Assembly (NCBI GenBank): GCA_965219625.1
Contig: OZ244782.1
Coordinates: 2,343,551 to 2,407,550 of the forward strand
DNA length: 64,000 nucleotides
DNA from: Candidatus Multivoraceae bacterium
Lineage (GTDB): Bacteria; Acidobacteriota; Thermoanaerobaculia; Multivoradales; Multivoraceae
Reading direction: 5' to 3'
In this document: piece by piece, positions 1-32,708 of the stretch
Layout of the letters: every line of letters starts with the position of its first letter
How positions within the stretch are numbered: position 1 is the stretch's first letter
The notes under the pieces: generated by a model
Seen by the model: only the letters and a program-made list of their open reading frames with translations
Told to the model about the DNA's origin: nothing
The model's database searches: none
Position numbers and translations under genes: made by a program

Positions 1-453
1 GACGGCCTGGTCGTCTCCTACATTCACGCCGGCGGCAGGATCGGCGTGTTGCTCGAGATCAACTGCGAGACGGACTTCGTGGCGCGGACCGACGATTTCC
101 AGAAGCTGGCCCACGATGTCTCGCTCCACATCGCAGCGAGCCAGCCGCGGTTCATCGGCCGTGCCGAGGTCACGGACGAAGTGCTTCAGCGCGAAAAGCG
201 GATTCACCGAGAGCAGGCGCTCGAGTCGGGGAAGCCGGAGCAGATCGTCGAGAGGATCGTCGAGGGCCGCATGTCCAAGTTCTTCAGTGAGAACTGCCTG
301 TTGGAGCAGCCCTTCGTCAAGGACCCGGAACAGACAGTCGAGGATGTCCTGAAGGCGGCGATCGCCAAACTGGGCGAGAACATGCGGATCTGCCGTTTCG
401 CCCGCTTCCAACTTGGCGCCGACGCGACGGTCGCCGCGGCGACCGCCGAGTAG
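1..453 (+). CDS. tsf: Elongation factor Ts, C-terminal part (5' end outside window)
   Basis: In-frame from position 1; translation [35 protein letters not shown] is typical of the EF-Ts dimerisation domain; followed by pyrH and frr as in the conserved tsf-pyrH-frr arrangement. Confidence 0.9.
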
Positions 454-478
454 GCGAGGCCGCACGCGAACCCCGTCG

Positions 479-1192
479 ATGCCCGAGCCTGCCTACCGCC
501 GCATCCTGCTCAAGCTGTCGGGCGAGGCGTTGATGGGCGACAAGCCCTTCGGCATCGACGAGGAGGTCGTGCGGCAGATCGCCGTGCAGATCCGCGAGGT
601 GTTCGATCTCGGCGTCGAGATCGGCGTCGTAGTCGGCGGCGGCAACGTGATCCGCGGCTTGGCGGCGAGTCACCGCGGGGTCGAACGTGCAACCGGCGAT
701 TACATGGGCATGTTGGCGACGGTGATCAACAGTCTTGCCATGCAGGACGCCCTGGAGAAGGCGGAGGTGCCGACCCGAGTGCAGACGGCGCTCGAGATGC
801 GCAGCGTCGCCGAGCCGTTCATCCGGCGCCGCGCCATCCGCCACCTGGAGAAGGGCCGCGTGGTCATCTTCGGCGCGGGTACCGGCAATCCCTACCTGAC
901 GACCGATACGGCGGCGGCACTCCGCGCGAACGAGATCCAGGCGGACATCTTGCTGAAGGCGACTCGCGTCGATGGCGTGTACAGCTCCGACCCCCGGCAC
1001 GACGAGGATGCCGTGCGCTTGCCCGAAGTTACCTACCAGGAAGTGCTGGAGCGCAATCTGGGCATCATGGACGCAGCGGCAATCAGCCTGTGTCGTGAGA
1101 ACGACCTCCCGATCGCGGTGTTCGACCTGTTGATGATCGGCAACATTCGTCGAGTCGTGCTGGGCGAGCGTGTCGGTTCCCTCGTTACCTGA
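479..1192 (+). CDS. pyrH: UMP kinase
   Basis: ATG at 479 inside ORF 413..1192; [20 protein letters not shown]...GGGNVIRG amino-acid kinase motifs of PyrH; between tsf and frr. Confidence 0.9.
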
Positions 1193-1335
1193 TTTCGCCG
1201 GGGATCCGAGCGTCGCGTGCCTGCGTGGGGCCCGCGGCCCATTCGTGTCGGAGGTTCGAACCCGCGGCAAGCCCCCTGCCGGCGGCGGATGATCGGTGGC
1301 GGCGGGGTAGGATCGCGGTCCGGGAGGCAGACGTG

Positions 1336-1890
1336 ATGCAGGAGTTGTTCTTGGAGATGGAACTCAGAATGAAGGACGGCGTCGACCACCTTCATGGCGA
1401 GTTGAAGACGCTTCGCACGGGTCGTGCGTCGACCGCGCTGCTGGACGGCGTGATCGTCGAATACTACGGAACGCCGACACCGCTCAACCAGCTCGCCAGC
1501 CTGGCGGTCGCCGACGCCACGCTCCTCGTCGCGCAGCCGTTCGACCCGACCCAGATAGCCGCCATCGAGCGCGCCATTCTCGTTGCCGACCTGGGCCTGA
1601 ACCCCTCGAATGACGGCAAGGTCGTACGCATCCCGGTGCCCCAGCTCACAGAGGAGCGTCGTCGTGAGATGGTCAAACGCGCGCATGACATCGCCGAGCG
1701 GTTCCGGAACACCGTGCGCGGCGTGCGGCGTGAGGGGAACGAGCAGCTGAAGAAGATGGAGAAGGCGAAGGAGATCTCTCAGGACGACGAGCGTCGGGGC
1801 TTTGACGAGATGCAGAGGCTCCACGACCACTACATCGCGCAGGTGAATCAGGCGCTCGCGAACAAGGAGAAGGACATCCTGGAGGTGTAG
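1336..1890 (+). CDS. frr: Ribosome recycling factor
   Basis: ATG at 1336 inside ORF 1225..1890; MQELFLEMELRMKDGVDHLHGELKTLRTGRAS...IPVPQLTEERRREMVKRAH matches RRF over its full length. Confidence 0.9.
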   Translation: MQELFLEMELRMKDGVDHLHGELKTLRTGRASTALLDGVIVEYYGTPTPLNQLASLAVADATLLVAQPFDPTQIAAIERAILVADLGLNPSNDGKVVRIPVPQLTEERRREMVKRAHDIAERFRNTVRGVRREGNEQLKKMEKAKEISQDDERRGFDEMQRLHDHYIAQVNQALANKEKDILEV

Positions 1891-1901
1891 GGGGGCCGTC
1901 C

Positions 1902-3167
1902 GTGTCGGAGTCGGGCTCTTCCCCCGTAACCCTCGCCGCTGGCGGGGAGCCGGCCGCGGCGACGAAGCCTGTGACGATTCACGCCATCGTTCCGGCTGCC
2001 GGCACGGGGACGCGGTTCGGCGGCGTCCGGCCGAAGCAGTTCATCGACCTCCTGGGTCGGCCGCTGCTGGCCTGGACCGTGCAGAGGCTGACCGCGGCAA
2101 TCGGCCTCGAGCGAGTGGTCGTCGCGGCGCCGCCGGGCAGCTCGGCCGCTACGCAGGAGATGCTGCGGCGCGAAACGGCAGCGTCGCCGGGAGTCGAGGT
2201 TCTCGTCGTGAACGGCGGTCGCCGGCGTCAGGACTCGGTGTACGGCGCGCTCAAGGCGCTCGGCCCCGGCAACGATGATCTGATCGCGGTGCACGATGCC
2301 GCGCGGCCGCTGTTGACGGCGCGTGACCTGAGTGCCGTACTCGAGGCGGCGGCGAGCAACGGCGTCGGCGCGGTGTTGGGCCGACCGCTGCGGGACACGC
2401 TGAAGACGGTCGATGGCGGCAGGCTGGGCGCCACCGTCGACCGCGCCGGTCTGTTCCGCGCCGAGACGCCGCAGGTTCTGCGTGCCGCGGCACTCTCGGC
2501 TGCGCTCGAACGAGCGGAGGAGGATCGTGTCGAGGTCACGGACGAGAGCAGTCTGTTCGAACCCGGCGCTTTGACCGCGGTCGCTGCGTCCGACCCGAAT
2601 CCGAAGCTGACCGATCCGGCGGATCGCGAAGCGATCGAGGCGTTGCTCAGGGCGCGGTTGTCTCCGCGACTGCAGACCCATGCCTCGGTCGGCCACGGCT
2701 ACGACGTTCATCGGCTGATCCCGGGGCGCCCGCTCATCCTCGGCGGGCAGCGGATTCCCCACGACCGAGGGCTCGACGGTCACAGCGACGCGGACGTCGT
2801 CTTCCACGCGATCGGTGACGCCCTGCTCGGTGCGGCTGGCCTGGGCGACCTCGGAGTCCATTTTCCGCCCGAGGACGAGGCCTGGGCGGGAGCGGACAGC
2901 TCGGATTTGCTGCGTCGGATCGTCGTCCTGGTTCATGCACGGGGCTTTCGAGTCGGGAACTGCGACGTCACCCTCATCGCCGAGCGTCCATCCATGGCGC
3001 CTTATCGGAGGGCGATCGAGCAGCGGATGGCGGAGATCTTGGGCGTCGACGTCGAACATGTGGGCTTCAAGGCAACTACGCACGAAGGCCTGGGCGCCCT
3101 GGGGCGGGGCGAGGGGATCGCGGCGCAGGCGGTCGCGCTGCTTGAGCGAACGGTAGGGAACGGATGA
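1902..3167 (+). CDS. ispDF: Bifunctional MEP cytidylyltransferase (IspD) / MEcPP synthase (IspF)
   Basis: GTG start. N-terminal half has IspD motifs (IVPAAGTGTRFG); C-terminal half has IspF motifs (HGYDVHRL...GHSDADVV...HAIGDALLGA). Stop overlaps the next gene's start (ATGA). Confidence 0.85.
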   Translation: MSESGSSPVTLAAGGEPAAATKPVTIHAIVPAAGTGTRFGGVRPKQFIDLLGRPLLAWTVQRLTAAIGLERVVVAAPPGSSAATQEMLRRETAASPGVEVLVVNGGRRRQDSVYGALKALGPGNDDLIAVHDAARPLLTARDLSAVLEAAASNGVGAVLGRPLRDTLKTVDGGRLGATVDRAGLFRAETPQVLRAAALSAALERAEEDRVEVTDESSLFEPGALTAVAASDPNPKLTDPADREAIEALLRARLSPRLQTHASVGHGYDVHRLIPGRPLILGGQRIPHDRGLDGHSDADVVFHAIGDALLGAAGLGDLGVHFPPEDEAWAGADSSDLLRRIVVLVHARGFRVGNCDVTLIAERPSMAPYRRAIEQRMAEILGVDVEHVGFKATTHEGLGALGRGEGIAAQAVALLERTVGNG

Positions 3168-3931
3168 GCGACGGTGGCGAATGGCGGCTCGGCTTCCAAG
3201 CCGTGCGCGAGGTTCTCCGGAGCCGCCCGCACCTGGTCGCCGAGCTGATCGTGGCGCGGAGCGCGGGGGAGCGGCGGCGGACGATCGAACGCCTGTCTAC
3301 GCGGCGTCAGGTTCGGGTAACCGCCCTGCCGCCGGGTGAGTTCAGGGAGAGACTCCTGCGGGACGGCTTGGACCCGGCGGCCGCGCGGGGGTTCGTGGCC
3401 CGCATCCGGGTGGGCTTGCGCGGCGAGGTTGGTCTCCGGGCCGGAGACAGTAGCTCCGACCCGGAGTTCGTCGTACTCGTCGAAGACGTACAGGATCCCC
3501 GGAACCTCGGCGCGATGCTCCGAGTTTGCGAAGGGGCCGGTGTGGGGCGAGTGTTGATCCGCGACCGTGGCTCGGCGCCGTTGTCCTCGACTGTCGCTTC
3601 AGCGTCGGCGGGGGCAGTCGACTGGATGGCGCTCGAGCGGATCACGAACAGTGGCATCGAGATCGGACGCCTGAAGCGGGCCGGCTACTGGGTCTATGGC
3701 GCCGATGCGAAGGGGCAGCCACCCTGGACGGTCGATCTGAGCGGTCCGGTCGTGTTCTGCATCGGCGGTGAGGCAAGGGGATTGCGCAAGCGGACGAAGG
3801 GCCTCTGCGATGCGCTGGTCGGTCTGCCGATGCGTGGCCGGGTCGAATCGCTCAACCTCGCTACCGCGGCCGCCGGCCTCCTCTACGAGGCCGTCCGTCA
3901 ACGTCTTGTCATAGCGGGGCCACTGGCGTAG
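3164..3931 (+). CDS. rlmB: SpoU/TrmH-family RNA 2'-O-methyltransferase (RlmB-like)
   Basis: SpoU motifs VVLVEDVQDPRNLGAMLR and ...GGEARGLR...LPMRGRVESLNLATAAAGLLYE; start overlaps the ispDF stop. Confidence 0.7.
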   Translation: MSDGGEWRLGFQAVREVLRSRPHLVAELIVARSAGERRRTIERLSTRRQVRVTALPPGEFRERLLRDGLDPAAARGFVARIRVGLRGEVGLRAGDSSSDPEFVVLVEDVQDPRNLGAMLRVCEGAGVGRVLIRDRGSAPLSSTVASASAGAVDWMALERITNSGIEIGRLKRAGYWVYGADAKGQPPWTVDLSGPVVFCIGGEARGLRKRTKGLCDALVGLPMRGRVESLNLATAAAGLLYEAVRQRLVIAGPLA

Positions 3932-3972
3932 ACTCCGACGTCGCCTTGGCGTTGAGCGCTTTCGGGGCGAGG

Positions 3973-4048
3973 GCCGGCATAGCTCAGTTGGTAGAGCAAC
4001 TGCCTTGTAAGCAGTAGGTCCTCGGTTCGAGTCCGGGTGCCGGCTCCA
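3973..4048 (+). tRNA. tRNA-Thr (anticodon TGT)
   Basis: Cloverleaf read by hand: acceptor gccggca/tgccggc, anticodon stem actgc/gcagt with loop cttgtaa (TGT), T-loop ttcgagt, encoded CCA. Confidence 0.85.
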
Positions 4049-4061
4049 GGGAGGAGTTGCC

Positions 4062-4148
4062 GGAGGTGTGGCCGAGCGGTCAAAGGCAACAGACTGTAAA
4101 TCTGTCGGGCAAAGCCCTACGGTGGTTCGAATCCATCCGCCTCCACCA
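4062..4148 (+). tRNA. tRNA-Tyr (anticodon GTA)
   Basis: Acceptor ggaggtg/cgcctcc, anticodon stem acaga/tctgt with loop ctgtaaa (GTA), long variable arm typical of class II tRNA-Tyr, T-loop ttcgaat, encoded CCA. Confidence 0.85.
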
Positions 4149-4169
4149 CGTTCCTTCCTGACGGCTTCG

Positions 4170-4244
4170 GCGGGAGTAACTCAGGGGTAGAGTCACAGCC
4201 TTCCAAGCTGTTGGTCGCGGGTTCGATTCCCGTCTCCCGCTCCA
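4170..4244 (+). tRNA. tRNA-Gly (anticodon TCC)
   Basis: Acceptor gcgggag/ctcccgc, anticodon stem acagc/gctgt with loop cttccaa (TCC), T-loop ttcgatt, encoded CCA. The tandem repeat array starts inside the 3' acceptor end. Confidence 0.85.
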
Positions 4245-5250
4245 GGCCGGCGCGGAGCGCGGCCTGGAGCGTGAGACGGGAATCGGCGTGCACCGCTCTC
4301 GTCGCATGCTTTCGCCTGCTCCTGGTCGCGTTGCGGGCTAGCGATTCCCGTTTCTGCCAACTGGGTGGAGGTGGCCGGCGCGGAGCGCGGCCTGGAGCGT
4401 GAGACGGGAATCGGCTTAGCCCCGCTCCCGTCGCATGCTTTCGCCTGCTCCTCGTCGCGTTGCGGGCTGAGCGATTCCCGAGTCGGTGGACTGGGTGGAG
4501 GTGGCCGGCGCGGAGCGCGGCCTGGAGCGTGAGACGGGAATCGGCTTAGCCCCGCTCTCGTCGCATGCTTTCGCCTGCTCCTGGTCGCGTTGCGGGCTAG
4601 CGATTCCCGTTTCTGCCAACTGGGTGGAGGTGGCCGGCGCGGAGCGCGGCCTGGAGCGTGAGACGGGAATCGGCTTAGCCCCGCTCCCGTCGCATGCTTT
4701 CGCCTGCTCCTGGTCGCGTTGCGGGCTAGCGATTCCCGTTTCTGCCAACTGGGTGGAGGTGGCCGGCGCGGAGCGCGGCCTGGAGCGTGAGACGGGAATC
4801 GGCTTAGCCCCGCTCCCGTCGCATGCTTTCGCCTGCTCCTCGTCGCGTTGCGGGCTGAGCGATTCCCGAGTCGGTGGACTGGGTGGAGGTGGCCGGCGCG
4901 GAGCGCGGCCTGGAGCGTGAGACGGGAATCGGCTTAGCCCCGCTCTCGTCGCATGCTTTCGCCTGCTCCTGGTCGCGTTGCGGGCTAGCGATTCCCGTTT
5001 CTGCCAACTGGGTGGAGGTGGCCGGCGCGGAGCGCGGCCTGGAGCGTGAGACGGGAATCGGCTTAGCCCCGCTCCCGTCGCATGCTTTCGCCTGCTCCTC
5101 GTCGCGTTGCGGGCTAGCGATTCCCGTTTCTGCCAACTGGGTGGAGGTGGCCGGCGCGGAGCGCGGCCTGGAGCGTGAGACGGGAATCGGCTTAGCCCCG
5201 CTCCCGTCGCATGCTTTCGCCTGCTCCTCGTCGCGTTGCGGGCTGAGCGG
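4245..5250. repeat. Tandem array of ~8 copies of a ~129-bp unit (unit lengths 128/130/129/129/130/129/129 plus a truncated last copy). Each unit holds a GC-rich hairpin and two inverted tRNA-Gly 3'-end-like segments.
   Basis: ggccggcgcggagcgcgg recurs at 4245, 4373, 4503, 4632, 4761, 4891, 5020 and 5149. Units fall into two sequence variants giving a higher-order ~388-bp (3-unit) duplication. Each unit contains the hairpin ggccggcgc-gga-gcgcggcc and the inverted pair gagacgggaatcggcttagccc / gggctagcgattcccgtttc. That pair resembles the tRNA-Gly T-arm and acceptor 3' end (cgattcccgtctcccgctcca). Confidence 0.9.
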
Positions 5251-5253
5251 AGG

Positions 5254-5781
5254 TTACTTCGCGGCTACGACGGCCGTCGCTTCCACCTCGATGAGCAACG
5301 ACGGGAACACAAGCCCCGTGACGCCGACCCAGGTCGAGGCGCGTGGGGGGTCGAGGCCCATGACCTTGGCTTGAGCGCGGCCGACGATCTGGACCTTCTC
5401 CGGGTCGATGTCCTTGATGAAGACGGTCGTCTTCAAGATGTCCTCGGGCCTGGCGCCGGCCTCCTCCGCGCGCTTGATGACGTTCGTGAAGGCGAGCTCG
5501 GCCTGTTCGGCCAGTGTCGCCGCGGGCGCCGCTGCTCCGTCGTCGGCCCAGCCGACTTGACCGGAGATGAAGATCGTCGTCACGCCGTTGGCGGTCGTCT
5601 TCGCGATGTGGGAGAAGCCGGGCTGCGAGCCGAGGAACTCGTTCTTCACTTCTTGGGCCTCCAATGCGACGGCTGCAAGAAGAATCGCCCCGAGACTCGT
5701 CGCGAAGCCGAATCGCCGCGCTATCGATGCAGGAGCCTTCCTTTGCGCCGTGTGGGTCGTTCGCGGTCGTACTCGTTCCAC
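5254..5781 (-). CDS. RidA/YjgF-family protein with N-terminal (possibly Tat) signal peptide
   Basis: RidA-like core (ISGQVGW...AFTNVIKRAEEAGARPEDILKTTVFIKDI...VGVTGLV) preceded by RRFGFATSLGAILLAAVALEA. Confidence 0.7.
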   Translation of the reverse strand: MERVRPRTTHTAQRKAPASIARRFGFATSLGAILLAAVALEAQEVKNEFLGSQPGFSHIAKTTANGVTTIFISGQVGWADDGAAAPAATLAEQAELAFTNVIKRAEEAGARPEDILKTTVFIKDIDPEKVQIVGRAQAKVMGLDPPRASTWVGVTGLVFPSLLIEVEATAVVAAK

Positions 5782-5885
5782 TCGTCGTCCCCTTGGGTCG
5801 TTCCGTGAGTCCGTTGGCGACTGGATGGGGAGAATAGCCGAGCGTGGGGACCGCCGCTGCTACTCTGCCGGTGGAGGTTGCCGAG

Positions 5886-6926
5886 ATGAGGACCGAGATG
5901 AAGACGGATCGTTCCATCGCCCTGTTCGTTGCACTGCTTCTTCTGGTTGCCGTGCACCAGCCCCCGCCCGGGTCAGCCGCCGAAGCCGAGTGGGTGAGGT
6001 ATCCGGGTGGCGACGGCCCCGGTGCGGGACTTCGGGTGGTCCTCATCGCCGGGGACGAGGAGTACCGCTCCGAGGAGGCGATGCCGATGCTGGGAAAGCT
6101 GCTCTCGGTACGGCATGGCTTCGAGTGCACTGTCCTGTTCTCGATCGATGCGGAGACTGGAGCAATCGATCCCGAAGAGCAGACGAACATTCCGGGTCTC
6201 GAAGCACTGGACGACGCGGATCTCATGGTGATCGCCACCCGGTTCCGTGAACTGCCGGACGAGCAGATGAAGCACATCGTCGAGTACGTCGAGTCGGGAC
6301 GGCCGATCATCGGCCTGCGCACGGCGACCCACGCGTTCTTCTACCAGCGAAACCTGGCCAGTCCGTACGCGCATTGGAGCTTCCGCAGCGAGTCTTGGCC
6401 TGGCGGTTTCGGCCAGCAGGTGCTGGGCGATACCTGGATCAACCACCACGGCAGGCACGGGCAGGAGAGCACTCGAGGCGTCGTTGCGCAGACCGCCGCC
6501 GGCCACCCGATTCTGCGCGGTGTCGATGACGTCTGGGGACCGACGGACGTCTACGGGCTCCGGAACCTGGGAAACGACGCGAACATCCTCTTGCTCGGCG
6601 CCGTCCTTGCCGGCATGTCTCCCGACGATCCACCGGTCGACGGCCCGAAGAACGACCCGATGGTTCCGGTTGCCTGGACCCGGACCTACACCGGCGCCGG
6701 CGGCCGGGCGGCGCGGGTGTTCGTGACGACGATGGGCGCCGCGACGGACTTCGAGAGCGAGGGGCTCCGTCGGTTGCTCGTCAACGCCGTGTACTGGGGT
6801 CTCGGCATGGAAGACCGGATTCCTGAGCGAAGCGATGTCCGGGTCGTCGGGGAGTACGACCCGACGGACTTCGGCTTCGGCGGCCACGCCCTGGGGGTCA
6901 TGCCGTCGGCCCACGCGCTGCCTTGA
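5886..6926 (+). CDS. ThuA-like (class-I glutamine amidotransferase-like) secreted protein
   Basis: Signal-peptide-like N-terminus (MRTEMKTDRSIALFVALLLLVAV); ThuA-family architecture (VVLIAGDEEYRSEE...DLMVIATRFRELPDEQ...GRPIIGLRTATHAF). Start codon uncertain (ATG at 5844, 5886 or 5898). Confidence 0.6.
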   Translation: MRTEMKTDRSIALFVALLLLVAVHQPPPGSAAEAEWVRYPGGDGPGAGLRVVLIAGDEEYRSEEAMPMLGKLLSVRHGFECTVLFSIDAETGAIDPEEQTNIPGLEALDDADLMVIATRFRELPDEQMKHIVEYVESGRPIIGLRTATHAFFYQRNLASPYAHWSFRSESWPGGFGQQVLGDTWINHHGRHGQESTRGVVAQTAAGHPILRGVDDVWGPTDVYGLRNLGNDANILLLGAVLAGMSPDDPPVDGPKNDPMVPVAWTRTYTGAGGRAARVFVTTMGAATDFESEGLRRLLVNAVYWGLGMEDRIPERSDVRVVGEYDPTDFGFGGHALGVMPSAHALP

Positions 6927-6956
6927 GTGGGCTCTTCACCGCGAACTCAGCTGGAC

Positions 6957-8489
6957 TCAGGACGAGTTCGCGAGGAATGCTCCCCGTTCGAGCAAGGGAG
7001 ATAGATCGTAGAGCAGTTCCCGCCGCCACCACGCTCCGTCGCCAGGCTCGCTGAACGAGTACTCATAGAGACGTAAGCGGAGGTAGTTCGGCGGCTTCCC
7101 GGCCTGTGCACCGGTATTGCCGAGGAGCCGCATCACCGCCGGTTCACCCTCGAACACCCGCGTCACGAAGGGCGCCAGCCAGTCCGCCCGCTGCGGGTCG
7201 AGCGCTGCGAACCACATCTGCCAGTCGAGGCGGGGCATGTGGGGCTGGGCGGCACGGGGCGCGCGATGAACATCCCCGGGCTTGAACCGGAAGGCGAGTT
7301 CGGTCCAGGTCGACCCGTCCGCGCTCGTCTCGACGACGATCTCCGGGCGTGAGGTCGTCATCGTCCGAAACAGGCCGTAGCCGCTGATCGAACGGAACGG
7401 TGCGACGGCGCGGAGCAGGGTTGTCGTCGGTTGAACCACGCTGCCGTCCACGAAATCGGCGATGGCGGCCGCCTGTGGAGGGGTGTCTGGTCCCCGCGGC
7501 AGCGAGCGGGTGAGTTCCCGGATGCCGACGAGCAGGCTGAGTCCGAGCACCGCAGCGGCCGCCGTAAAGCGGATTCGGCGCGAGGTCATCGCTGCCGATT
7601 CGAATCCTCCCGGCGCCCGGTCCGTATCTTTGCCGCCGTACCACGACAGACAGAGTACGGCGGAGAGCAGGTTGAAGAAGCCGTAGTTGCCGGTCGCCGC
7701 AATGAGGAGTTGCAGACCGACCAACAGCCACATCGCGACGCGGCGCAACCGCGGGACGAAGAGCAACCAGGGGGCGGCGAGCTCGACGACGAACATGACG
7801 AGCACGGAGAGGCGATGAAACGACTCGGGGAGCTGATGGACGTACCAACTCGTCATCACTGGCAGAGGTTGCGTGAAGTAGTGGACCTCGAGCGCGCTGA
7901 GTTGCCGCCAGGCGGGATCGAGGCTGACCAGCTTGGTCGCTCCTGAGAGGAACATCAGCTTGACGACCAACAGGCGGAAGAGCCAGATTCCCGCGCCTTC
8001 GGCCGGGGCGCGCGGCCTGCTCCGGAACAGAGCCGTGACGCGCTCCGCCGGCGAAGGGGGCTGGCTCGTCGAACCGCTCCGCCAGCCCAGGGGCGCCAGC
8101 ACGACGGCGCACAACGTCGCCTCGAGCAGCAGGGAGTCCCATTGGAAGGCCAGGAAGGTCTGGCCAGCCCAGACGAGCGACAGGTAGCAGAACCAGAGAG
8201 CGGCGAACACGGGCAGAGTCACCATGCCGGCGATCGCCAGCAGGGCGAGCACGCCGCCGCTCGCACAGACCAGATGGAGCATCAGGTCGTCTGAGCCGAA
8301 CCAGAACAGAGACGGCGCCCGCGCGAATCGCTCGAACGGTCCCCCTTCCACCACGCGCCGGATGTAGTCGAAGTACTCGCTCGCCGGCAAGATCCCCCGG
8401 GAACCGACGAGTCCCTCAATCTGCGTCCACAGGGACACGAACGCGACGAGGTGGACGCCGGCCAGCAAACGGAGCAGTAACCTCGGCAT
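6957..8489 (-). CDS. Polytopic membrane protein, LMF1 (lipase-maturation-factor)/HTTM-like family
   Basis: Multiple hydrophobic segments; motifs HYFTQPLPVMTSWYVHQLP and NYGFFNLL resemble LMF1/DUF1222-type proteins. Family assignment from memory of motifs, not searched. Confidence 0.45.
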   Translation of the reverse strand: MPRLLLRLLAGVHLVAFVSLWTQIEGLVGSRGILPASEYFDYIRRVVEGGPFERFARAPSLFWFGSDDLMLHLVCASGGVLALLAIAGMVTLPVFAALWFCYLSLVWAGQTFLAFQWDSLLLEATLCAVVLAPLGWRSGSTSQPPSPAERVTALFRSRPRAPAEGAGIWLFRLLVVKLMFLSGATKLVSLDPAWRQLSALEVHYFTQPLPVMTSWYVHQLPESFHRLSVLVMFVVELAAPWLLFVPRLRRVAMWLLVGLQLLIAATGNYGFFNLLSAVLCLSWYGGKDTDRAPGGFESAAMTSRRIRFTAAAAVLGLSLLVGIRELTRSLPRGPDTPPQAAAIADFVDGSVVQPTTTLLRAVAPFRSISGYGLFRTMTTSRPEIVVETSADGSTWTELAFRFKPGDVHRAPRAAQPHMPRLDWQMWFAALDPQRADWLAPFVTRVFEGEPAVMRLLGNTGAQAGKPPNYLRLRLYEYSFSEPGDGAWWRRELLYDLSPLLERGAFLANSS

Positions 8490-8539
8490 GGCGCCTATCC
8501 TGACGGAGTGGAAGAATCCGAGGCGGAGCGAAGAGGACG

Positions 8540-9727
8540 ATGGAACTGGAGACCTTCGAGCTCGAGCGGCAGCAGTCGCTGTTCGAACATCACGTCGACT
8601 ACAACCTGAGCGAGAGCGGGGTCGAGCCGCTGAGCCTGAGGGAGCTTGCAGGTCTTGGCCTGGACCTGGACGCGTTCTGTTCGGTTCCCATCGAATATGT
8701 GCAGACGAATGGCACTCCCGAACTCCGTTCGCAACTCGCCGGTCGCTACGATGACGCTTCGCCGGACCAACTGCTTGTCACGAATGGCACCTCGGAGGCG
8801 AACTACCTGGCAGTCCAGGTGCTCGTCCGCCCCGGCGACGAAGTCGTCGCGCTGGTTCCGAACTACCTTCAGGTGGCCGGCGCGGCACGCGGCCTGGGTG
8901 CAGCTGTCCGTGACGTGCCGCTCGTACCGGGCGCCGACGCCGCGACCTGGACCTTGGACTGGGACGCCTTCGAGGCGGCGCTGTCCCCGCTCACCCGGCT
9001 GATCTACCTGAGTCAGCCGAACAACCCGACCGGGCACGTTTTCTCATCGGCTGAACTCGACCGCATCGCCGCGGCGGCGGACCGGGTCGGCGCCTGGGTT
9101 CTGTGCGACGAGGTTTATCGCGGCGCGGTCCACGACCTTCCGCCCGGCGAAGAGGCGCCCGGATGCTGGGGCCGCGGCGAGCGGATCGTCGTCACGTCCG
9201 GGCTGTCCAAGTCCTACGGCCTGCCGGGCGCCCGGTTGGGCTGGATGATCGGTCCGCTCGACGTCATCGCCCGTTCCTGGGCCCGCCGCGACTACACGAC
9301 GATTGCGCCCGGCGCCCTCTCCGATGCACTCGCGCGGTTTGCGATCCGCCCGGAGGTCGAGGCACGGCTCCACGACCGCGCGCGGGGGATGATGCGGGTC
9401 AACCGGGGTCAGCTCTGTTCCTGGATCAAGCAGCAGTGCGGCGTGTTCGTCTATCGCGAACCGCGAGCCGGCGCCTACGCCTTCTTGCCGTATCGTCGCG
9501 ATGGGCGCCCGGCCGACTGTGTCGCCTTTGTCGAGCAACTGCGACGCAAGCAGAGCGTACTCCTGGTGGCCGGCCGCTGGGCGGGCATGCCCGGCTACCT
9601 GCGGTTCGGACTGGGCGCCGAACCCTCCGTCTTCGCCGCCGGCCTCGCCCGCATCGGAGAGGAGCTCCGGTCGCCGCGCGACAAGCCGACGGGGGGCGTG
9701 GCGGTCGCTGGGGGAGCAGAGCGGTGA
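8540..9727 (+). CDS. Class I/II PLP-dependent aminotransferase
   Basis: Fold-type I aminotransferase motifs, including the PLP-lysine region GLSKSYGLPGARLGWMIGP; ~395 aa. Confidence 0.75.
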   Translation: MELETFELERQQSLFEHHVDYNLSESGVEPLSLRELAGLGLDLDAFCSVPIEYVQTNGTPELRSQLAGRYDDASPDQLLVTNGTSEANYLAVQVLVRPGDEVVALVPNYLQVAGAARGLGAAVRDVPLVPGADAATWTLDWDAFEAALSPLTRLIYLSQPNNPTGHVFSSAELDRIAAAADRVGAWVLCDEVYRGAVHDLPPGEEAPGCWGRGERIVVTSGLSKSYGLPGARLGWMIGPLDVIARSWARRDYTTIAPGALSDALARFAIRPEVEARLHDRARGMMRVNRGQLCSWIKQQCGVFVYREPRAGAYAFLPYRRDGRPADCVAFVEQLRRKQSVLLVAGRWAGMPGYLRFGLGAEPSVFAAGLARIGEELRSPRDKPTGGVAVAGGAER

Positions 9728-10623
9728 CGACTGCCCGCCTCCGGCGCGCCGTCCATTTCGTTCCCGGAGGCAACGAGCGGATGCTGGCCAAGTCCCTGGG
9801 CCTTGCGGCCGACACCTTGATTCTCGATCTGGAAGACGCCGTGACGCCGAATCGGAAGCAGGTCGTGCGCCGGGAGGTCGCCTCGTGGCTCGCGAACACG
9901 GACTTCGGCGGCCGGGAACGGGCGGTGCGGGTGAACGACCTTCTGACTCCCTGGGGGCGCGAAGACTACGAGGTCACGATGGAGCATCCGCCGGACGTCT
10001 ACGTTGTGCCGAAGGTGCGCGGTGTGGACGATGTGCTGCGGGTCGACCGGTTGGTGGCGCAGTTGGAACTGGAACATGGCCACGATCTGGGCGGCATCGG
10101 CCTGATCCTGATTGGGACCGAGACGGCTGGAGGCGCGCTCAACCTGGGCCGTCTGGTCGCCACGAATCGGGTCTTCGCGTTGACCTGGGGCGCCGAGGAT
10201 CTGTCCGTGTCGATAGGCGCCAGCCGGCGGCGCGACGAGCGGGGGGAGTATCTGGACGTCTTCCGCTACTGCCGCTCGATGACTCTTCTCGCCGCCCGTG
10301 CCGGCGGCGCGCAGCCGATTGACAGCGTATTCGTCGACATCGGCGACCTCGAGGGGCTGCGGCAGGACTGTCGACGGGCGGCCTGGATGGGGTTCGAGGG
10401 GAAGATGACGATTCACCCGAGCCAGATCCCGATCGTGAACGAGATCTTCACTCCGAGTGCCGAGGAGATCGCTGCCGCTTCGGCGCTGGTCGAGGCCTTC
10501 GCCGAGAACGAGAGAGAGGGCCGGATGGCGTTTCGTTTCGAGGGACAGATGGTCGATGCCCCACACCTCCACCGAGCGGAGCGGGTGCTCGACCGTGCCC
10601 GTCAGGCGGCAGCGATCGAGTAG
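9724..10623 (+). CDS. HpcH/HpaI aldolase / citrate-lyase beta (CitE)-like lyase
   Basis: GTG start overlapping the upstream stop (GTGA). ...AVHFVPGGNERMLAKSLGLAADTLILDLEDAV... and ...FEGKMTIHPSQIPIVNEIF... are typical of CitE/malyl-CoA-lyase-like enzymes. Confidence 0.7.
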   Translation: MTTARLRRAVHFVPGGNERMLAKSLGLAADTLILDLEDAVTPNRKQVVRREVASWLANTDFGGRERAVRVNDLLTPWGREDYEVTMEHPPDVYVVPKVRGVDDVLRVDRLVAQLELEHGHDLGGIGLILIGTETAGGALNLGRLVATNRVFALTWGAEDLSVSIGASRRRDERGEYLDVFRYCRSMTLLAARAGGAQPIDSVFVDIGDLEGLRQDCRRAAWMGFEGKMTIHPSQIPIVNEIFTPSAEEIAAASALVEAFAENEREGRMAFRFEGQMVDAPHLHRAERVLDRARQAAAIE

Positions 10624-10653
10624 CAGCCGGAAACCGGCTAAGCTGTTTCCATC

Positions 10654-11421
10654 TTGGTCAGCATGACGCCGAGCAGCTTGGTCGTTGGAATCGCGGGTCT
10701 GTTCCTCCTGCCGATCCTCGCAGGCTCTCTGCAGGCAGACGACCCGACGGTCGAGGACTTGATGCTTGCGGCTGACGACCTGCTGCGCGGGGAGTCGAGT
10801 GAGGGGCGGATCACGATGCGCGTCCGTACCGCCCGCTGGCAACGGGAACTGCGGCTCTACCTGCTCTCCGAGGGCAGCGAGAAGGCCTTGGTCCGCATCG
10901 AGTCGCCGCCGAAGGAAAGGGGCACGGCGACACTCAAGGTCGAGCAGAACATCTGGAACTACCTGCCGCGCGTTGACCGTACGATCAAGGTGCCGGGGTC
11001 CATGATGCAGGCGGCCTGGATGGGAAGTCACTTCACGAACGACGACCTGGTGCGGGAGTCGCGATTCAGCGAGGACTTCGAGTGCCGGTTCGAGCAGCGG
11101 CCCGCGGAGGGCGCGGACCACTGGTTCGTGCGCTGTGTGCCGCTGCCCGATGCGCCGGTGGTTTGGGGTGCGGTCGAGGCTCGGTTCCGGGTCGAGGACC
11201 GACTGCTCGACCGGGTCGAGTACTTCGACGAGCGTGATCGGCTGGTGCGCACGGTCGTCTATGACGACATCGGGCCGTTGGGCGGTCGGACTCTGCCGCG
11301 TCGGATGCGGGTCGTTCCGGCGGACGCCCCCGACGAGTTCACGGAGATCGTCTACGACGAGCTCAGGTTCGAGGTCGAGGTGGGCGACGGAGCGTTCACG
11401 CTGCAGGCGTTGCGGGACTGA
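10654..11421 (+). CDS. LolA-like outer-membrane lipoprotein-sorting-family protein (periplasmic, signal peptide)
   Basis: N-terminal signal peptide; size and position immediately upstream of two FtsX/MacB-type permeases and an ABC ATPase is the usual context for LolA-like (PF17131-type) proteins. Family call is tentative. Confidence 0.5.
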   Translation: MVSMTPSSLVVGIAGLFLLPILAGSLQADDPTVEDLMLAADDLLRGESSEGRITMRVRTARWQRELRLYLLSEGSEKALVRIESPPKERGTATLKVEQNIWNYLPRVDRTIKVPGSMMQAAWMGSHFTNDDLVRESRFSEDFECRFEQRPAEGADHWFVRCVPLPDAPVVWGAVEARFRVEDRLLDRVEYFDERDRLVRTVVYDDIGPLGGRTLPRRMRVVPADAPDEFTEIVYDELRFEVEVGDGAFTLQALRD

Positions 11422-11455
11422 ACCGGCGAGCCTCCGATCCGTGCAGACTCTCCGC

Positions 11456-12667
11456 ATGGCTTGGCGCAACCTGTGGCGGAATGGGCGCCGCACCCTGGTC
11501 ACGGTCGGCGCGATGACCCTCGCCCTGTGGAGCATGGTGCTCTACACCTCCCTGATGGAAGGGATGTTGGGCAGCATGGAGAGGACGCTCCTCGACGTCG
11601 AGCTGGGCGAGATCCAGATCCACGCCGCCGGCTACCGGGAGCGCCCGTCCATCTGGGAACGAATCGAAGAGCCGGATGCACTGCTCCAGGCCCTGGACGA
11701 GACGGGTCTGCGGTCGAGCGCGCGTCTGCTCGGAGGCGCCCTGGTCGCCTCGGGCGACGTCTCGACCGGCGCGATGCTCAAGGGGCTGCGCCCGGAGCGC
11801 GACGCGCTCGTGAGCGACGTCCATCTCCGCCTGGACCGGGGCGAGTGGCTCGATGCGTCCGATCCGGAGGGCGTCGTGCTCGGCTATCGGTTGGCGCGGA
11901 CGCTGGCGGTCGATGTGGGCGGCGAACTCGTCGCGCTGAGTCAGGCGACCGACGGCAGCATGGCGAACGATCTGTTCCGCGTGCGCGGCGTTCTCCAGAG
12001 CCTGAGCGAAGAGACGGACCGGGCGACCGTCTTCCTGCTCGAGGAGGAGTTCCGCAGCTTCTTCGCGCTCGCAGACGGCGCCCACCGGGTCATCGTCCGC
12101 AGTCTGGAGGGGCAGGATCTCGCCGCAGCCGCGGGGGCCGCGGAAGAGGCCGCGGCCGCGAGCGCGCCCGGCTTGGAAGTGAAGAGCTGGCGCGACCTCC
12201 TCCCGGGCCTCGCGAACGTCCTCGACTCGGCGCAAGCCGCCGTCCAGGTCGTCGCGTTCATCGTGTACGTCGTCATCGCGATCCTCATCCTGAATGCGAT
12301 GTTGACGGCGGTCTTCGAACGGATCCGCGAGTTCGGGGTGCTCAAGGCGATCGGTGTTTCGCCGCGGCGGGTGCTGGCGCTCATTCTGGTCGAGGGGGGA
12401 TTCCAGGCGGCGCTGGCGATCGCGATCGGTCTTGCCTGCAGTCTGCCCGCGCTCTGGTTCGTCACGACGCGCGGGATCGACGTCGGCGGCTTGGGCGGAA
12501 CGGCGATCATGGGGGTCGCGATGGATCAGATCTGGACCGGCGCAGTCACGCCGGTGGCGATCGCCGGGCCCATCGTCATCCTGCTCTTCGTCGCGGGCCT
12601 CGCGGTCCTGTTTCCGGCAATCAAGGCGGCGCGGATCAACCCGATCGAGGCGATCCACCACGAGTAG
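11456..12667 (+). CDS. ABC transporter permease, FtsX/MacB-like
   Basis: MAWRNLWRNGRRTLVTVGAMTLALW N-terminal TM, large periplasmic domain, C-terminal FtsX 3-TM block (…AIGVSPRRVLALILVEGG…). The track ORF 11461..12741 in another frame is a GC-artifact. Confidence 0.7.
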   Translation: MAWRNLWRNGRRTLVTVGAMTLALWSMVLYTSLMEGMLGSMERTLLDVELGEIQIHAAGYRERPSIWERIEEPDALLQALDETGLRSSARLLGGALVASGDVSTGAMLKGLRPERDALVSDVHLRLDRGEWLDASDPEGVVLGYRLARTLAVDVGGELVALSQATDGSMANDLFRVRGVLQSLSEETDRATVFLLEEEFRSFFALADGAHRVIVRSLEGQDLAAAAGAAEEAAAASAPGLEVKSWRDLLPGLANVLDSAQAAVQVVAFIVYVVIAILILNAMLTAVFERIREFGVLKAIGVSPRRVLALILVEGGFQAALAIAIGLACSLPALWFVTTRGIDVGGLGGTAIMGVAMDQIWTGAVTPVAIAGPIVILLFVAGLAVLFPAIKAARINPIEAIHHE

Positions 12668-12691
12668 CGGGACGAGGAAGGAAGGAGCAGC

Positions 12692-13939
12692 ATGAACGGC
12701 CCGAATGTGGCTACCCTCGCTTGGCGCAATCTGTGGCGTAACCGTCGACGGACCCTGCTGACCCTGGGTTCGATCATCTTCGGCGTGTTCCTCGCCGTCG
12801 TGTTCACCGCGATGCAGGATCGGAACTGGAAGGACATGATCGACCTCGCGGCACGGCTCGGGGGCGGTCACGTGAGTCTCCAGCATCCGGAGTACCTCGA
12901 CAAGCCGACGCTGACCCGCACGATCTTTCGGAGCGGGATCGTCGAAGCCGCGCTCGAGGTAGAAGCGCCGAGGATCCAGCGCTCCGTCGATCGGGTGATC
13001 GGCCCGACGATGCTGGCGACGGCGGGGGAGACCTTCAGCGCCGCGTTCATCGCCTTCGACCCGGAGGTCGAGGACAAGACGACGCTTTCGATCCTCGAGG
13101 CGATCGACGAAGGCTCGGCCCTCGAGCCCGGCGATGGGAACGGCGTCATCCTCGGCTACCGTCTCGCCCTCAACCTGGGAATGGAGCTCGGCGACAAGGT
13201 GGTCTACACGTTGACCGACAAGGACGGGGAGATCGTGAGCGGTCTCGCGAGGTTGCGGGGCACGCTCCGGACGAACGCGCCCACCGTCGACGGCGGCTTC
13301 TGCCTGCTGCCGATCGACACCGTGCGCGGCGTGCTCGGCTACGGCGAGGACGAGGCGACGCTGGTCGCCGTCTTTCTGGAGGATCAGCGGAAGAGCGCCG
13401 CGGTCGCCGGCCGGTTCCGCCGCGAGCTCGGCGAGACGGCCGCCGCCGTCCCCTGGAACGCGAGTCAACCGCAACTCGCGGCGTTCATCGCGCTGAAGGT
13501 CGGCGGCGCGGTCGTCATGGAGATCCTGATCGCGATCCTCGTCGCGGCCGGCATCTTCAACACGATGTTCGTCAGCGTGATGGAGCGGCTGCGGGAGTTC
13601 GGGATCATGCTGGCGATCGGCTGGAGTCCGGGTCGGCTCTTCCGGCTGATCATGATGGAGAGCGCGTGGCTGGCCGCGCTCGGTCTGGCCGGCGCCTTCC
13701 TGATCACCCTGGGCCCCTACGTCTATCTGTCGTCGGCCGGCCTCGACATGACGGCGATCTACGGCGGGACGGTGGAAATCGCCGGCATCGGCCTGGATCC
13801 CGTGCTGAAGGTCGGCATCTTTCCACGCAACGCGGCGCTGATCGCTCTGTTCGCGGTGATCGCGACCCTTGCCTCGGGCATCTATCCGGCCTGGCGCGCC
13901 GGCCGGGTCGAGCCGGTGTCGGCGATCAGGCTGGTGTGA
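12692..13939 (+). CDS. ABC transporter permease, FtsX/MacB-like (paralog of upstream gene)
   Basis: LAWRNLWRNRRRTLLTLGSIIFGVF...; same architecture as the preceding permease; C-terminal FtsX domain. Confidence 0.7.
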   Translation: MNGPNVATLAWRNLWRNRRRTLLTLGSIIFGVFLAVVFTAMQDRNWKDMIDLAARLGGGHVSLQHPEYLDKPTLTRTIFRSGIVEAALEVEAPRIQRSVDRVIGPTMLATAGETFSAAFIAFDPEVEDKTTLSILEAIDEGSALEPGDGNGVILGYRLALNLGMELGDKVVYTLTDKDGEIVSGLARLRGTLRTNAPTVDGGFCLLPIDTVRGVLGYGEDEATLVAVFLEDQRKSAAVAGRFRRELGETAAAVPWNASQPQLAAFIALKVGGAVVMEILIAILVAAGIFNTMFVSVMERLREFGIMLAIGWSPGRLFRLIMMESAWLAALGLAGAFLITLGPYVYLSSAGLDMTAIYGGTVEIAGIGLDPVLKVGIFPRNAALIALFAVIATLASGIYPAWRAGRVEPVSAIRLV

Positions 13940-13940
13940 A

Positions 13941-14633
<693 letters not shown>

Positions 14634-14655
14634 GACGTCGCCGCGGCGGCGAGGC

Positions 14656-15891: not shown

Positions 15892-15934
15892 ACTGCCCCG
15901 CCCCTGTCGACACGCTCCGGAGACGTCCCGCGCC

Positions 15935-15956
15935 TTTACCGAACGTTCATCGACCG
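15935..15956 (+). promoter_or_regulatory. Candidate Pho box (two 7-nt direct repeats at an 11-bp spacing) upstream of pstS
   Basis: TTTACCG-AACG-TTCATCG-ACCG lies ~65 bp upstream of the pstS ATG; the 7+4 periodicity matches the PhoB-box architecture. Confidence 0.35.
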
Positions 15957-16019
15957 TAAGCTACGCTCCGCGGTGTTCGACCGTCGTGCGTGTCCCCGAC
16001 CTGCAGAGGTGTTTCGGCC

Positions 16020-17905: not shown

Positions 17906-17925
17906 CAGACGGAAGCGAGCGCCGC

Positions 17926-19571: not shown

Positions 19572-20374
19572 CCGCTTCGTCGACTCCCGTCGCCGCTGCG
19601 GCCGACGCGACCGCGGCGATTCTGGTGGAGAAGCTGAGTCTCTGGTACGGGGACTTCCAGGCGCTGTTCGACGTGGACTTGAGCGTGCGCGCCGGCGCGA
19701 TCACCTCCCTGATCGGCCCCTCGGGCTGCGGCAAGACGACGCTGCTCCGGTCGGTCAACCGGATCAACGAGCGCCTTGGGTACGTGCGGACGACCGGCGG
19801 CATTCGGCTGTGGGGGCTCGATGTCTACGATCCCTCGGTCGAGCTGGCCCAGCTCCGCAAGCAGGTCGGCATGGTCTTCCAGCGTCCGAACCCGTTGCCT
19901 CTCTCCGTCCGCGACAACGTCCTGTTCGGGACCCGGGTCCACCAGCCGGACGGGCGCCCATCGTCGAAGGCCGAGGGAGACCGGATCGTCGAGCAGGCGC
20001 TGCGCGACGTCCTGCTCTGGGACGAGTTGAAGGATGCGCTCGACCGGCCCGGCACCGAGCTCTCGCTCGAGCAGCAGCAGAAGCTGTGCATCGCGCGCCT
20101 GCTGCCGGTCAAGCCGAGACTTCTGCTGATGGACGAGCCTTGCTCGGCGCTCGACCCCGCCGGCACCGAGGCGGTCGAGGAGCTCATCTGGAAGCTCCGC
20201 GGCGACTACACCATCCTGATCGTCACCCACAACATGGCACAGGCGCGCCGGGCCAGCGAGGAATGCGTGTTCATGCTTCTCGGCAGGATCGTCGAGCACA
20301 GCGACACGGCCTCGATGTTCCTGAACCCCAGCGATCCCCAGACCGCCGCCTACATCGAGGGTCGCTACGGGTAG
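19567..20374 (+). CDS. pstB: Phosphate import ATP-binding protein (second copy)
   Basis: ATGA overlap with the upstream gene; LSLWYGDFQALFDVDLSV...GPSGCGKTTLLRSVNRINE is a canonical PstB N-terminus. Confidence 0.85.
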
Positions 20375-31444: not shown

Positions 31445-31514
31445 GACAGCAGCGAATCGAGACAGCACTACACGGACAGTTGAACCGCTGGAGCGGGAGA
31501 GGCATACGAGCGTC

Positions 31515-32708
<1,194 letters not shown>

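Follow-up and report, generated by a model that had tools for sequence, protein, structure and literature searches.

We analysed a window of 64,000 nucleotides, by which we mean the whole stretch of contig OZ244782.1 from position 2,343,551 to 2,407,550 (assembly GCA_965219625.1, Candidatus Multivoraceae bacterium, Acidobacteriota), in which an operon of three tRNA genes, for Thr, Tyr and Gly, is followed by a tandem array of units of about 129 bp. Each unit carries two copies of the 3' end of the neighbouring tRNA-Gly, one antisense and nearly exact, the other sense and degenerate. The module that the unit represents is non-coding and is kept directly behind the last gene of the operon in a Holophagales-like acidobacterial clade. 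The loci of relatives, referred to by L numbers, were chosen by their SpoU protein, which is 65-71% identical to that of the window, and one of these genomes is named Holophagales.

Anatomy of the array

The tRNA-Gly(TCC) gene was placed at 4170-4244 by ARAGORN and Rfam, and the array therefore begins right after its CCA, at the adjoining base 4245. In the assembled sequence, Tandem Repeats Finder reports one array on the plus strand, 4245-5249, with a period of 129 bp (7.8 copies, 95% matches, score 1829), and describes the same array with a period of 388 bp (2.6 copies, 99% matches, score 1975). The units start at 4245, 4373, 4503, 4632, 4761, 4891, 5020 and 5149 and are 128, 130, 129, 129, 130, 129 and 129 bp long, followed by a truncated eighth of 101 nt, and the array ends 4 nt short of the stop codon of a convergent ridA-like gene. 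All eight units are matched by a covariance model, R1, with E-values from 1e-12 to 6e-5.

We denote the last 21 nt of tRNA-Gly as segment a, the hairpin that opens each unit as H1, the antisense copy as a', the middle hairpin region as H2 and the sense copy as a''. A block of 43 nt, GGCCGGCGCGGAGCGCGGCCTGGAGCGTGAGACGGGAATCGGC, which comprises H1 and a', is present and invariant in every unit, and its minus strand matches the tRNA-Gly 3' end and 5 downstream bases at 25 of 26 positions. With up to 3 mismatches allowed, the 20-mer tail of tRNA-Gly has 9 matches in the window against 0.02 expected. The degenerate sense copy a'', GCGATTCCCGTTTC, follows about 75 nt beyond this block; it recurs in every full unit, where it pairs with a' and so closes a long hairpin.

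Two variants of the unit occur in the order A' B A A B A A B, which amounts to a higher-order repeat of three units, B-A-A, spanning 388 bp. The B units (4373-4502, 4761-4890 and 5149-5249) are marked by a clustered change in the tail of a'', GAGTCGGTGGA instead of GTTTCTGCCAA, and by one extra G; this patch looks like a single multi-base event and not like separate point mutations, and no donor or templating sequence for it was found in the window. Unit 1 is probably the oldest copy, because it retains GGCGTGC after a', as do L123 and L135, and the derived GGCTTAGCC is common to the internal units. We regard the array as a recent tandem amplification that last grew by duplication of the three-unit block of 388 bp.

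Several known kinds of repeat were considered and rejected. A coding repeat is contradicted by the units of 128 and 130 bp, which shift the frame, and by codon-position GC contents unlike those of genes: the open reading frames (ORFs) of the array have values of 0.62-0.68 at the second and 0.74-0.79 at the third position, against 0.46-0.54 and 0.80-0.89 in the neighbouring genes, and none of them gave a Pfam match above cutoff. Moreover, the periods of 129, 116 and 285 bp found in the window and in two relatives allow no single shared reading frame. A CRISPR array was rejected because the whole 129-bp unit repeats at 95-99% identity with no unique spacers. Against a duplicated integrase attachment (att) site or an island stand the lack of a flanking integrase, the conserved gene order, the flat GC content across the array region and an a'' that lacks the terminal GCTCCA. 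Dispersed repeats of the repetitive extragenic palindrome (REP), bacterial interspersed mosaic element (BIME) or miniature inverted-repeat transposable element (MITE) type were set aside, since no copies lie off the array in the 64-kb window and none of full length lies outside tRNA-Gly trailers in the 975 kb searched. Duplication in the window through recombination between a and a'' was also rejected, as the distance from a to a'' is 118 bp against a period of 129 bp and the junction lies at the start of H1.

These results bear out most of what a preliminary description, made from the letters of the window, had said of the array. Its account of the anatomy (units of about 129 bp, their lengths, the hairpin, the inverted segments and the order of A and B variants) agrees throughout with Tandem Repeats Finder, the unit table and the folds. 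Its proposal that tRNA-Gly 3'-end sequence gave rise to an amplified, structured element, which grew by duplication of a three-unit block, is supported by Tandem Repeats Finder and the variant table. Codon-position GC, frame drift and the lack of a Pfam match uphold its non-coding assignment, and it was also right in setting aside CRISPR (no unique spacers) and an att duplication (no integrase, and no GCTCCA in a'').

The features of the locus are collected in Table 1. The promoter-like site is the only sigma-70-like match in window 1-20000 and lies just upstream of tRNA-Thr. By eye, L121 and L128 keep both of its hexamers around a 17-nt spacer of other sequence, and in the inverted block of L131 TTGTCA is combined with TAGAGT, one change away. 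Given this conserved predicted promoter upstream of tRNA-Thr, the operon would therefore read into the array. At the other end, the coordinates of ridA are those of a mechanically called ORF, whose true start probably lies further downstream; ridA is found at the same position in L121, L123, L127, L129, L131 and L135. The neighbours in the window (IspDF, SpoU, RidA, ThuA, LMF1 and an aminotransferase) stand in the same order as in the relatives.

Table 1. Features of the tRNA operon, the array and the adjoining gene (window coordinates).
Feature	Position	Strand	Evidence
Promoter-like site TTGTCA-17-TAGACT, overlapping the 3' end of the SpoU-family methyltransferase gene	3906..3934	+	sigma-70-like match
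tRNA-Thr(TGT), first gene of the operon	3973..4048	+	ARAGORN; Rfam tRNA, 73 bits
tRNA-Tyr(GTA)	4062..4148	+	ARAGORN; Rfam tRNA, 60 bits
tRNA-Gly(TCC), last gene of the operon, CCA encoded; last 21 nt = segment a	4170..4244	+	ARAGORN; Rfam tRNA, 67.5 bits
Near-perfect long palindrome: a, H1 (GGCCGGCGC-GGA-GCGCGGCC, 4245-4264) and a' (4265-4285)	4222..4287	.	inverted repeat I1
Tandem array, 7.8 x 129 bp; unit = H1, a', middle hairpin region H2, a'', then spacer	4245..5249	+	Tandem Repeats Finder; R1
Unit 1, 128 bp	4245..4372	+	unit alignment; cross-genome alignment
a'' of unit 1, GCGATTCCCGTTTCTGCC, degenerate sense copy of the tRNA-Gly T-loop/acceptor 3' strand	4341..4358	+	folds
Two 388-bp higher-order repeats, each B-A-A (130 + 129 + 129 bp)	4373..5148	+	Tandem Repeats Finder, period 388; variant table
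Eighth unit, B type, truncated, 101 nt	5149..5249	+	unit/variant table
RidA/L-PSP-family gene, convergent	5254..5781	-	Pfam PF01042, E = 1.9e-16; translation

The module in related genomes

The gene order SpoU, tRNA Thr-Tyr-Gly, ridA (minus strand) and ThuA recurs in most of the relatives, and in nine of the ten Holophagales-like genomes that have the tRNA-Gly gene, the window included, this gene is trailed by parts of the module. All nine share H1 and the antisense a' of 20-21 nt, and seven of them also have H2 and a partial sense a''. The H1 segment (19-23 nt) abuts the CCA and is a GC hairpin in all but L129; H2 is a GC hairpin of variable sequence, and the a'' of relatives, for example GCGAATCCCGTCTCCC, again corresponds to the T-loop/acceptor 3' strand. 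Unit 1 of the window aligns over its full length with L121, L122, L123, L128, L129 and L135, and motifs that do not derive from the tRNA are conserved as well, namely GGCGTKCG after a' and GGCTAGCGA before a''. These single copies of the same module behind tRNA-Gly in relatives show that the array is not an invention of one genome.

The number of copies differs between genomes. The module is single in L121, L122, L128 and L135, reduced to H1 and a' in L130 and L131/L132, and absent from L127, and it is tandemly repeated not only in the window but also in L123 (seven units of 109-117 bp and a degenerate eighth, likewise extending to the ridA stop) and in L129 (2 x 285 bp). The junctions between units lie at the start of H1 in the window and within the 5' arm of H1 in L123, and in L129 the unit includes about 190 nt of downstream spacer. 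Since both the periods and the positions of the junctions differ, the three arrays are independent, and tandem amplification arose three times (129 bp x 7.8 in the window, 116 bp x 7-8 in L123 and 285 bp x 2 in L129). Both long arrays replace a spacer of 250-300 bp with other hairpins that is found before ridA in single-copy relatives, which is compatible with the array substituting for the lost spacer hairpins.

The tRNA-Gly gene is identical, bar one T-loop base, in eight genomes (the window, L121-L123, L127-L129 and L131), and in seven of the nine genomes with a' the corresponding base of a' is complementary to the variant of its own tRNA. Thus, the window combines GATTCCC in the tRNA with GGGAATC in a', and L121, L122, L123, L128, L131 and L135 combine GAATCCC with GGGATTC; a' has diverged at this site in L129 and L130. 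The sense copy a'' matches a' at the variable T-loop base in four of six genomes.

Rearrangements are found at several of these loci. In L131 (3762-4220), in L132 (Holophagales, GCA_009839125.1) and in L130 (6390-6720), the entire block from the promoter through the Thr-Tyr-Gly tRNA genes to H1 and a' is inverted relative to SpoU; the breakpoints in L131 lie inside the old 3' end of SpoU and inside a'', so that a'' is lost and a' is intact (20/21). L126 carries an IS21-family element (rve and IstB) at 3723-5845, directly after SpoU, and no tRNA genes were found in its 6.7-kb locus. In L124 (2560-2872; Logan SRR33991079, a short-read contig), the SpoU is identical to that of L123, tRNA-Tyr differs and tRNA-Gly is replaced by unrelated DNA; strain variation or a chimeric contig end could account for this. 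The public gene call for L129 places an ORF of 266 aa without a Pfam domain across the 285-bp x 2 repeat (3853-4653, minus strand), probably a spurious call caused by the repeat, and in practical terms the trailer module can mislead gene callers.

In order to place the module against other lineages, we used as a control 120 loci (L001-L120) obtained by a pattern scan of genome contigs that returned tRNA-Gly(TCC) genes with a TCCGATT T-loop, and compared 111 genes. Within 150 nt downstream of the tRNA, the best inverted match to its last 16 nt reaches 15-16/16 in the clade and 7-11/16 behind the 111 tRNA-Gly(TCC) genes of other lineages; none of these 111 genes is followed by the module, and none of the 120 control loci has a repeat array. 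As a side observation, the TCCGATT T-loop, seen in 118 control tRNA-Gly(TCC) genes (Acidobacteriaceae, Bryobacterales, Burkholderiales and others), has a C at the position of the near-universal U55 (pseudouridine 55).

Searches with an nhmmer profile and with R1 over 975 kb gave full-length matches only behind tRNA-Gly, and R1 finds L135, which is outside its training set, at E = 2e-12. A widespread REP or MITE family with no link to tRNA-Gly, the outcome that the preliminary description had named as speaking against its proposal, is thus not what was found. In the window, no copy of the unit lies outside the array and no other tRNA has such an antisense copy of its tail. An exact 21-mer of the unit has no match in JGI metagenome contigs, nor has an exact 23-mer in viral contigs; a pattern for the architecture (tRNA tail, 10-34 nt, antisense copy) gave one metagenome match, which is L128, and no viral match, and blastn of the 388-bp block against plasmid and phage records gave none. 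Rfam reports no family besides the three tRNAs, and sub-threshold miRNA-like scores just reflect the palindrome. An H1-like 20-mer with 2 mismatches, GGCCGGCGCGGCACGCGGCC, lies inside the aminotransferase gene at 8875-8894 (plus strand) and is probably due to chance in a genome of 67% GC.

The tRNA cluster to which tRNA-Gly once belonged has been split. In Terriglobia, Thr-Tyr-Thr-Gly-(tuf)-Trp are still together, and the window has Thr(GGT)-tuf-Trp at a distance of 27 kb. Clade members share these flanks whether they have one copy of the module, many or none; the split is therefore ancestral, older than the array and not its consequence. The preliminary description had located the array exactly where the tRNA-tuf cluster appeared to be broken, and this link stands for the conserved module, which sits at the old breakpoint, now the end of the shortened operon, but not for the array itself, which is younger than the split. 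In the leader of tuf, just after tRNA-Thr(GGT), we also noted an exact 12-mer, TGGAGCGGGAGA (31489-31500, plus strand), that is the complement of the last 12 nt of tRNA-Gly(TCC) and lies 15 nt before the ATG at 31515. About 0.6 such matches per window are expected by chance at up to 1 mismatch, and far fewer exact ones; the 12-mer may be a remnant of the former Gly-tuf linkage or a purine-rich Shine-Dalgarno sequence that matches by coincidence.

Folding of the palindrome and the trailer

The inverted repeat I1 formed by a, H1 and a' has arms of 26 nt that are 96% complementary, and as RNA the stretch 4222-4287 reaches -58.6 kcal/mol, with z = -9.0 for the plus and -10.4 for the minus strand. 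Downstream of H1, the stretch taken in isolation has the interrupted stem between a' and a'' as its minimum-energy fold (-43 to -46 kcal/mol, z from -2.5 to -3.5). When the trailer alone is folded, six genomes give the same structure, H1 followed by a long a':a'' hairpin that is capped by H2. The stems of H1 and H2 vary in sequence between genomes and are usually still hairpins, with z down to -5.3 and weak values in some. Over seven trailers, 18 G-U pairs are counted on the plus strand against 4 on the minus strand, and the plus strand is equally or more stable.

In the covariance-model alignment, 78.6% of the cells at paired positions can pair and covariation scores 0.154; shifting the partners by 1-3 columns leaves 40-51% and a score of no more than 0.088. 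Double changes are seen in five pairs. As the alignment was fitted to the structure and the sequences are related, these statistics give moderate support only. RNAalifold on a plain MAFFT alignment was set aside in favour of the covariance-model realignment, because H1 and H2 were misaligned and the a':a'' core alone was recovered. A pseudo-tRNA on the minus strand was also considered and rejected, given that the similarity to the tRNA ends inside the T-loop and neither ARAGORN nor Rfam calls one.

Proposed role and origin of the trailer

The anatomy of the array, its conservation, its restriction to tRNA-Gly, the three independent amplifications and its non-coding nature were established directly. 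The explanation that we favour, with moderate confidence, is that the Thr-Tyr-Gly tRNA operon has a structured 3' trailer, that this trailer acts as the 3' end of the operon and that the array is its amplified form. The module would be co-transcribed with the operon from the promoter at 3906-3934, and the transcript would fold into H1 and a long a':H2:a'' hairpin that could serve in cis for termination, as a barrier to 3' exonucleases, as a processing site or as insulation from the convergent ridA. The antisense a' was probably created, and kept matched to the tRNA, by template switching of replication across H1. Tandem copies would arise from slippage or unequal sister-strand exchange, promoted by the hairpins and the repeats, and the extra copies most likely represent redundancy rather than a new function. 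Repeat instability typically proceeds by tandem growth through slippage and then by unequal exchange between units, and such growth is supported here by the three independent amplifications and by the 388-bp block that is 99% identical. Template switching is known to create and maintain perfect stems and to homogenise the arms of inverted repeats (PMC8794818, PMC8604942, PMC7202029).

A comparable arrangement exists in E. coli, where terminator hairpins that abut the CCA of a tRNA are removed by polynucleotide phosphorylase (PNPase), RNase P or RNase E (PMC2811032, PMC5291269, PMC4176162). The window module is like these trailers in that its hairpin adjoins the CCA of the last tRNA; it differs in having no detectable T-run terminator, in carrying antisense and sense copies of the tRNA, eightfold in the window, and in that its function is predicted.

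Several observations weigh against an operon 3' end of this kind. The transcription of the array, its termination or processing, and the mutational routes by which it arose are inferred from the DNA. No site with the consensus of a hairpin and a T-run was found in 3800-5900, despite strong hairpins; terminator-type sites are no commoner than in shuffles anywhere in the window, so that the scan carries little information, and short T-rich stretches follow a'' in L123, L129, L121 and L128 (CCCTTTTGCTG, CCCCTGTGTTTTGGG, CCCTTGTGCTG). The pairing of the inverted segments that the preliminary description had proposed, which holds in the isolated stretch, meets competing inter-unit pairings in folds of a whole unit and of three units, whose z of -2.1 and -2.7 are modest relative to shuffles. 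If the tRNA is included in the precursor, the minimum-energy fold in six of six genomes is a long a:H1:a' hairpin that unfolds the tRNA: pairing its last 20-21 nt with a' is 7-23 kcal/mol better than a cloverleaf followed by a':a''. In the fold that preserves the cloverleaf, UCCA:UGGA extends H1. A passive trailer leaves unexplained why an antisense segment that is dangerous to the tRNA has been retained, and TGGAGCG, the 5' part of a', is conserved though it has no partner in a''. Finally, covariation between the arms of a palindrome can come from template switching without selection.

A rival suggestion is that a' itself might be the functional core of a regulatory anti-tRNA RNA, which, judged from the letters of the trailer, we consider possible but unlikely. 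In cis, a' would compete with the cloverleaf for the 3' end of tRNA-Gly, and the alternation of a:H1:a' and a':a'' would form a three-segment switch that gates the maturation of tRNA-Gly(UCC) or read-through. In trans, its pairing partners would be 3' ends or fragments of tRNA-Gly, and the eight-copy array would multiply the antisense dose in the manner of a sponge. Of the explanations weighed, this one accounts best for a perfect a' that includes the unpartnered and conserved TGGAGCG head, and for two mutually exclusive precursor folds of which a:H1:a' is the more stable. Seven of the nine genomes have an a' that is complementary to the tRNA at 20-21 of 21 positions and tracks the T-loop variant (L130 has 17/21, and the a' of L129 has diverged), although a match of this perfection is equally expected from homogenisation by template switching (PMC8794818), and a'' agrees with a' at the variable base in just four of six genomes. 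The G-U asymmetry favours an RNA of the plus strand, and tRNA 3' trailers can indeed function, as in the 3'ETS-leuZ sponge of small RNAs mentioned in a passage of PMC6191717 (citing Lalaouna 2015). However, nothing that could be regulated lies downstream except the antisense ridA, the 3' ends of mature tRNAs are buried in helices except for NCCA, and L127 has lost the module without visible compensation.

A rather unlikely origin is that of a DNA by-product without function, in which fold-back or template-switch repair of a break after tRNA-Gly in the Thr-Tyr-Gly-Thr-tuf cluster left inverted and direct copies of the tRNA tail. Recurrent template switching would then have kept the arms identical to the constrained tRNA, and the unstable structure would have spawned neutral, satellite-like arrays. 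The module does coincide exactly with the point at which this clade broke a cluster that Terriglobia keep intact, and the locus is unstable: it shows three amplifications and inversions with a breakpoint inside a'' (L131 and L130), has an IS21 element in L126 and has lost the module in L127. As DNA, the palindrome is no stronger on one strand than on the other, whereas the G-U asymmetry suggests a constraint at the level of RNA. Long palindromes are normally counter-selected through cleavage by SbcCD, and the persistence of this one is not what a neutral by-product would lead us to expect. Nor would such an origin account for the non-tRNA motifs and the hairpins that are conserved in the same places across genomes whose SpoU is about 30% diverged, or for a module that stayed attached to the tRNA through inversion of the block. 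The window palindrome shares with the quasipalindromes left by template switching, which creates stems and homogenises their arms, the near-perfect arms around a short hairpin and one arm that tracks the other (PMC8794818, PMC8604942, PMC7202029). Template switching is, however, a mutational mechanism and not a family of elements, and it covers the origin and matching of a' but leaves the tandem arrays and the conservation of the flanking motifs unexplained.

More doubtful is the specific proposal that a' works as an RNA element, either as a cis switch or as up to eight anti-tRNA sites per transcript. As a switch, the tRNA 3' end would be the anti-terminator or anti-processing partner, and formation of the operon 3' end, or the yield of tRNA-Gly, would report on tRNA folding; as an array, the anti-tRNA sites would titrate tRNA-Gly 3' ends or fragments. 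If true, either form would be a previously undescribed bacterial control of one tRNA species from its own trailer.

We find it very improbable that the module is the remnant of a mobile element, be it a decayed tRNA-integrating island with a as attL and a'' as attR or a MITE with a' and a'' as terminal inverted repeats, duplicated in tandem later. The 3' ends of tRNA genes are classic integration sites, direct copies of the tRNA 3' segment (a and a'') lie about 100 bp apart, and a' and a'' form an inverted pair of about 25 bp that flanks about 40 bp. Yet neither in the window nor in most relatives does an integrase or transposase adjoin the module, which is flanked by housekeeping genes whose order is conserved. 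The GCTCCA expected of an attR is missing from a'', and a second copy was found neither in the 975 kb searched nor in viral contigs, phage or plasmid records. Like att duplications and REP, BIME or MITE elements, the locus has part of a tRNA 3' end duplicated close to the tRNA gene and is built of palindromic units of about 100 bp; unlike these, it shows no integrase, island, dispersal or spacers, and it combines antisense and sense copies with conserved flanks. A primer-binding site of retroviruses or long terminal repeat (LTR) elements starts with TGG and is complementary to a tRNA 3' end including CCA, and a', which starts with TGG and complements the 3'-terminal 21 nt of the tRNA including CCA, resembles it, but in resemblance only: a simpler reason for the complementarity is that a' forms a palindrome with the tRNA gene itself, and no reverse transcriptase or retroelement context was found among the genes called in the relatives' loci or the few window ORFs scanned.

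It is scarcely credible that the array is an assembly error in copy number or encodes a repeat protein of 43 codons per 129-bp unit: the copy number is known from the assembly alone, 129 is divisible by 3 and open stretches of up to 277 codons occur, but the 128- and 130-bp units break the frame, codon-position GC is unlike that of genes and Pfam matches are lacking, the ordered B-A-A pattern is unlike the noise of a collapsed or expanded assembly, the independent assemblies of relatives have arrays of their own, and the SpoU protein is recorded on a 3.7-Mb contig, of a kind that we infer to be usually built from long reads spanning 1 kb.

With the operon 3' end as the explanation that we favour, the closest known case is the tyrT/tyrV locus of E. 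coli (RtT, RF00391; rttR, tpr). In both, the array adjoins the last tRNA gene of an operon on its downstream side, and a copy of the 3' end of that tRNA is found in every unit. We checked on the sequence of E. coli K-12 that repeats of 178 bp x 3.1, annotated as rttR/tpr, abut tyrV and that the last 19 nt of tRNA-Tyr recur, exactly and in sense orientation, at the end of each unit; by eye, the unit also holds an antisense stretch of 10 nt, GGGGAAGGAT. The type of copy thus differs, since in the window the antisense copy is the near-exact one (25/26) and the sense copy is degenerate, whereas the E. coli copy is exact and sense. The window array also differs in its units (129 bp x 7.8), its phylum, its tRNA and its neighbours, it has no Tpr-like ORF, and its single-copy ancestor is visible in relatives, unlike that of E. 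coli tyrT. As a positive control, RF00391 gave 4 matches of 133-138 bits on the E. coli locus, and it gave no match at E <= 10 in window 3000-7000 and none at the gathering score in six relatives. By these comparisons, the window array resembles E. coli tyrT in layout and is not a member of the RtT family, with no homology apparent in sequence or structure. The tyrT repeats reportedly contain a Rho-dependent terminator and processing sites, which Kupper in 1978 and Rossi in 1981 are said to have described, and this would agree with a trailer role. A processed RNA is attributed to the tyrT repeat in passages of PMC3318445 (citing Bosl and Kersten 1991) and of bioRxiv 10.1101/2024.07.17.603846.

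Taken together, the finding is real and, as far as can be judged, not an artefact, and it is more than the curiosity of a single genome: it concerns a clade-conserved module that has expanded repeatedly. For repeats made of tRNA pieces behind a tRNA operon, we found one classic example in the literature, E. coli tyrT/RtT, and the window locus is a second and unrelated one, from a different phylum and with a single-copy ancestor visible in relatives. The three independent amplifications indicate that such trailers are prone to growing into arrays. An antisense copy of the last 21 nt of a tRNA behind its own gene should compete with folding of the tRNA, and the conserved antisense tail copy is the part that deserves experimental attention. 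Should this segment have a function, tRNA maturation would be under a cis control of a new kind; if it has none, it would be a clean natural case of template switching that matches the arm of a palindrome to a constrained gene.

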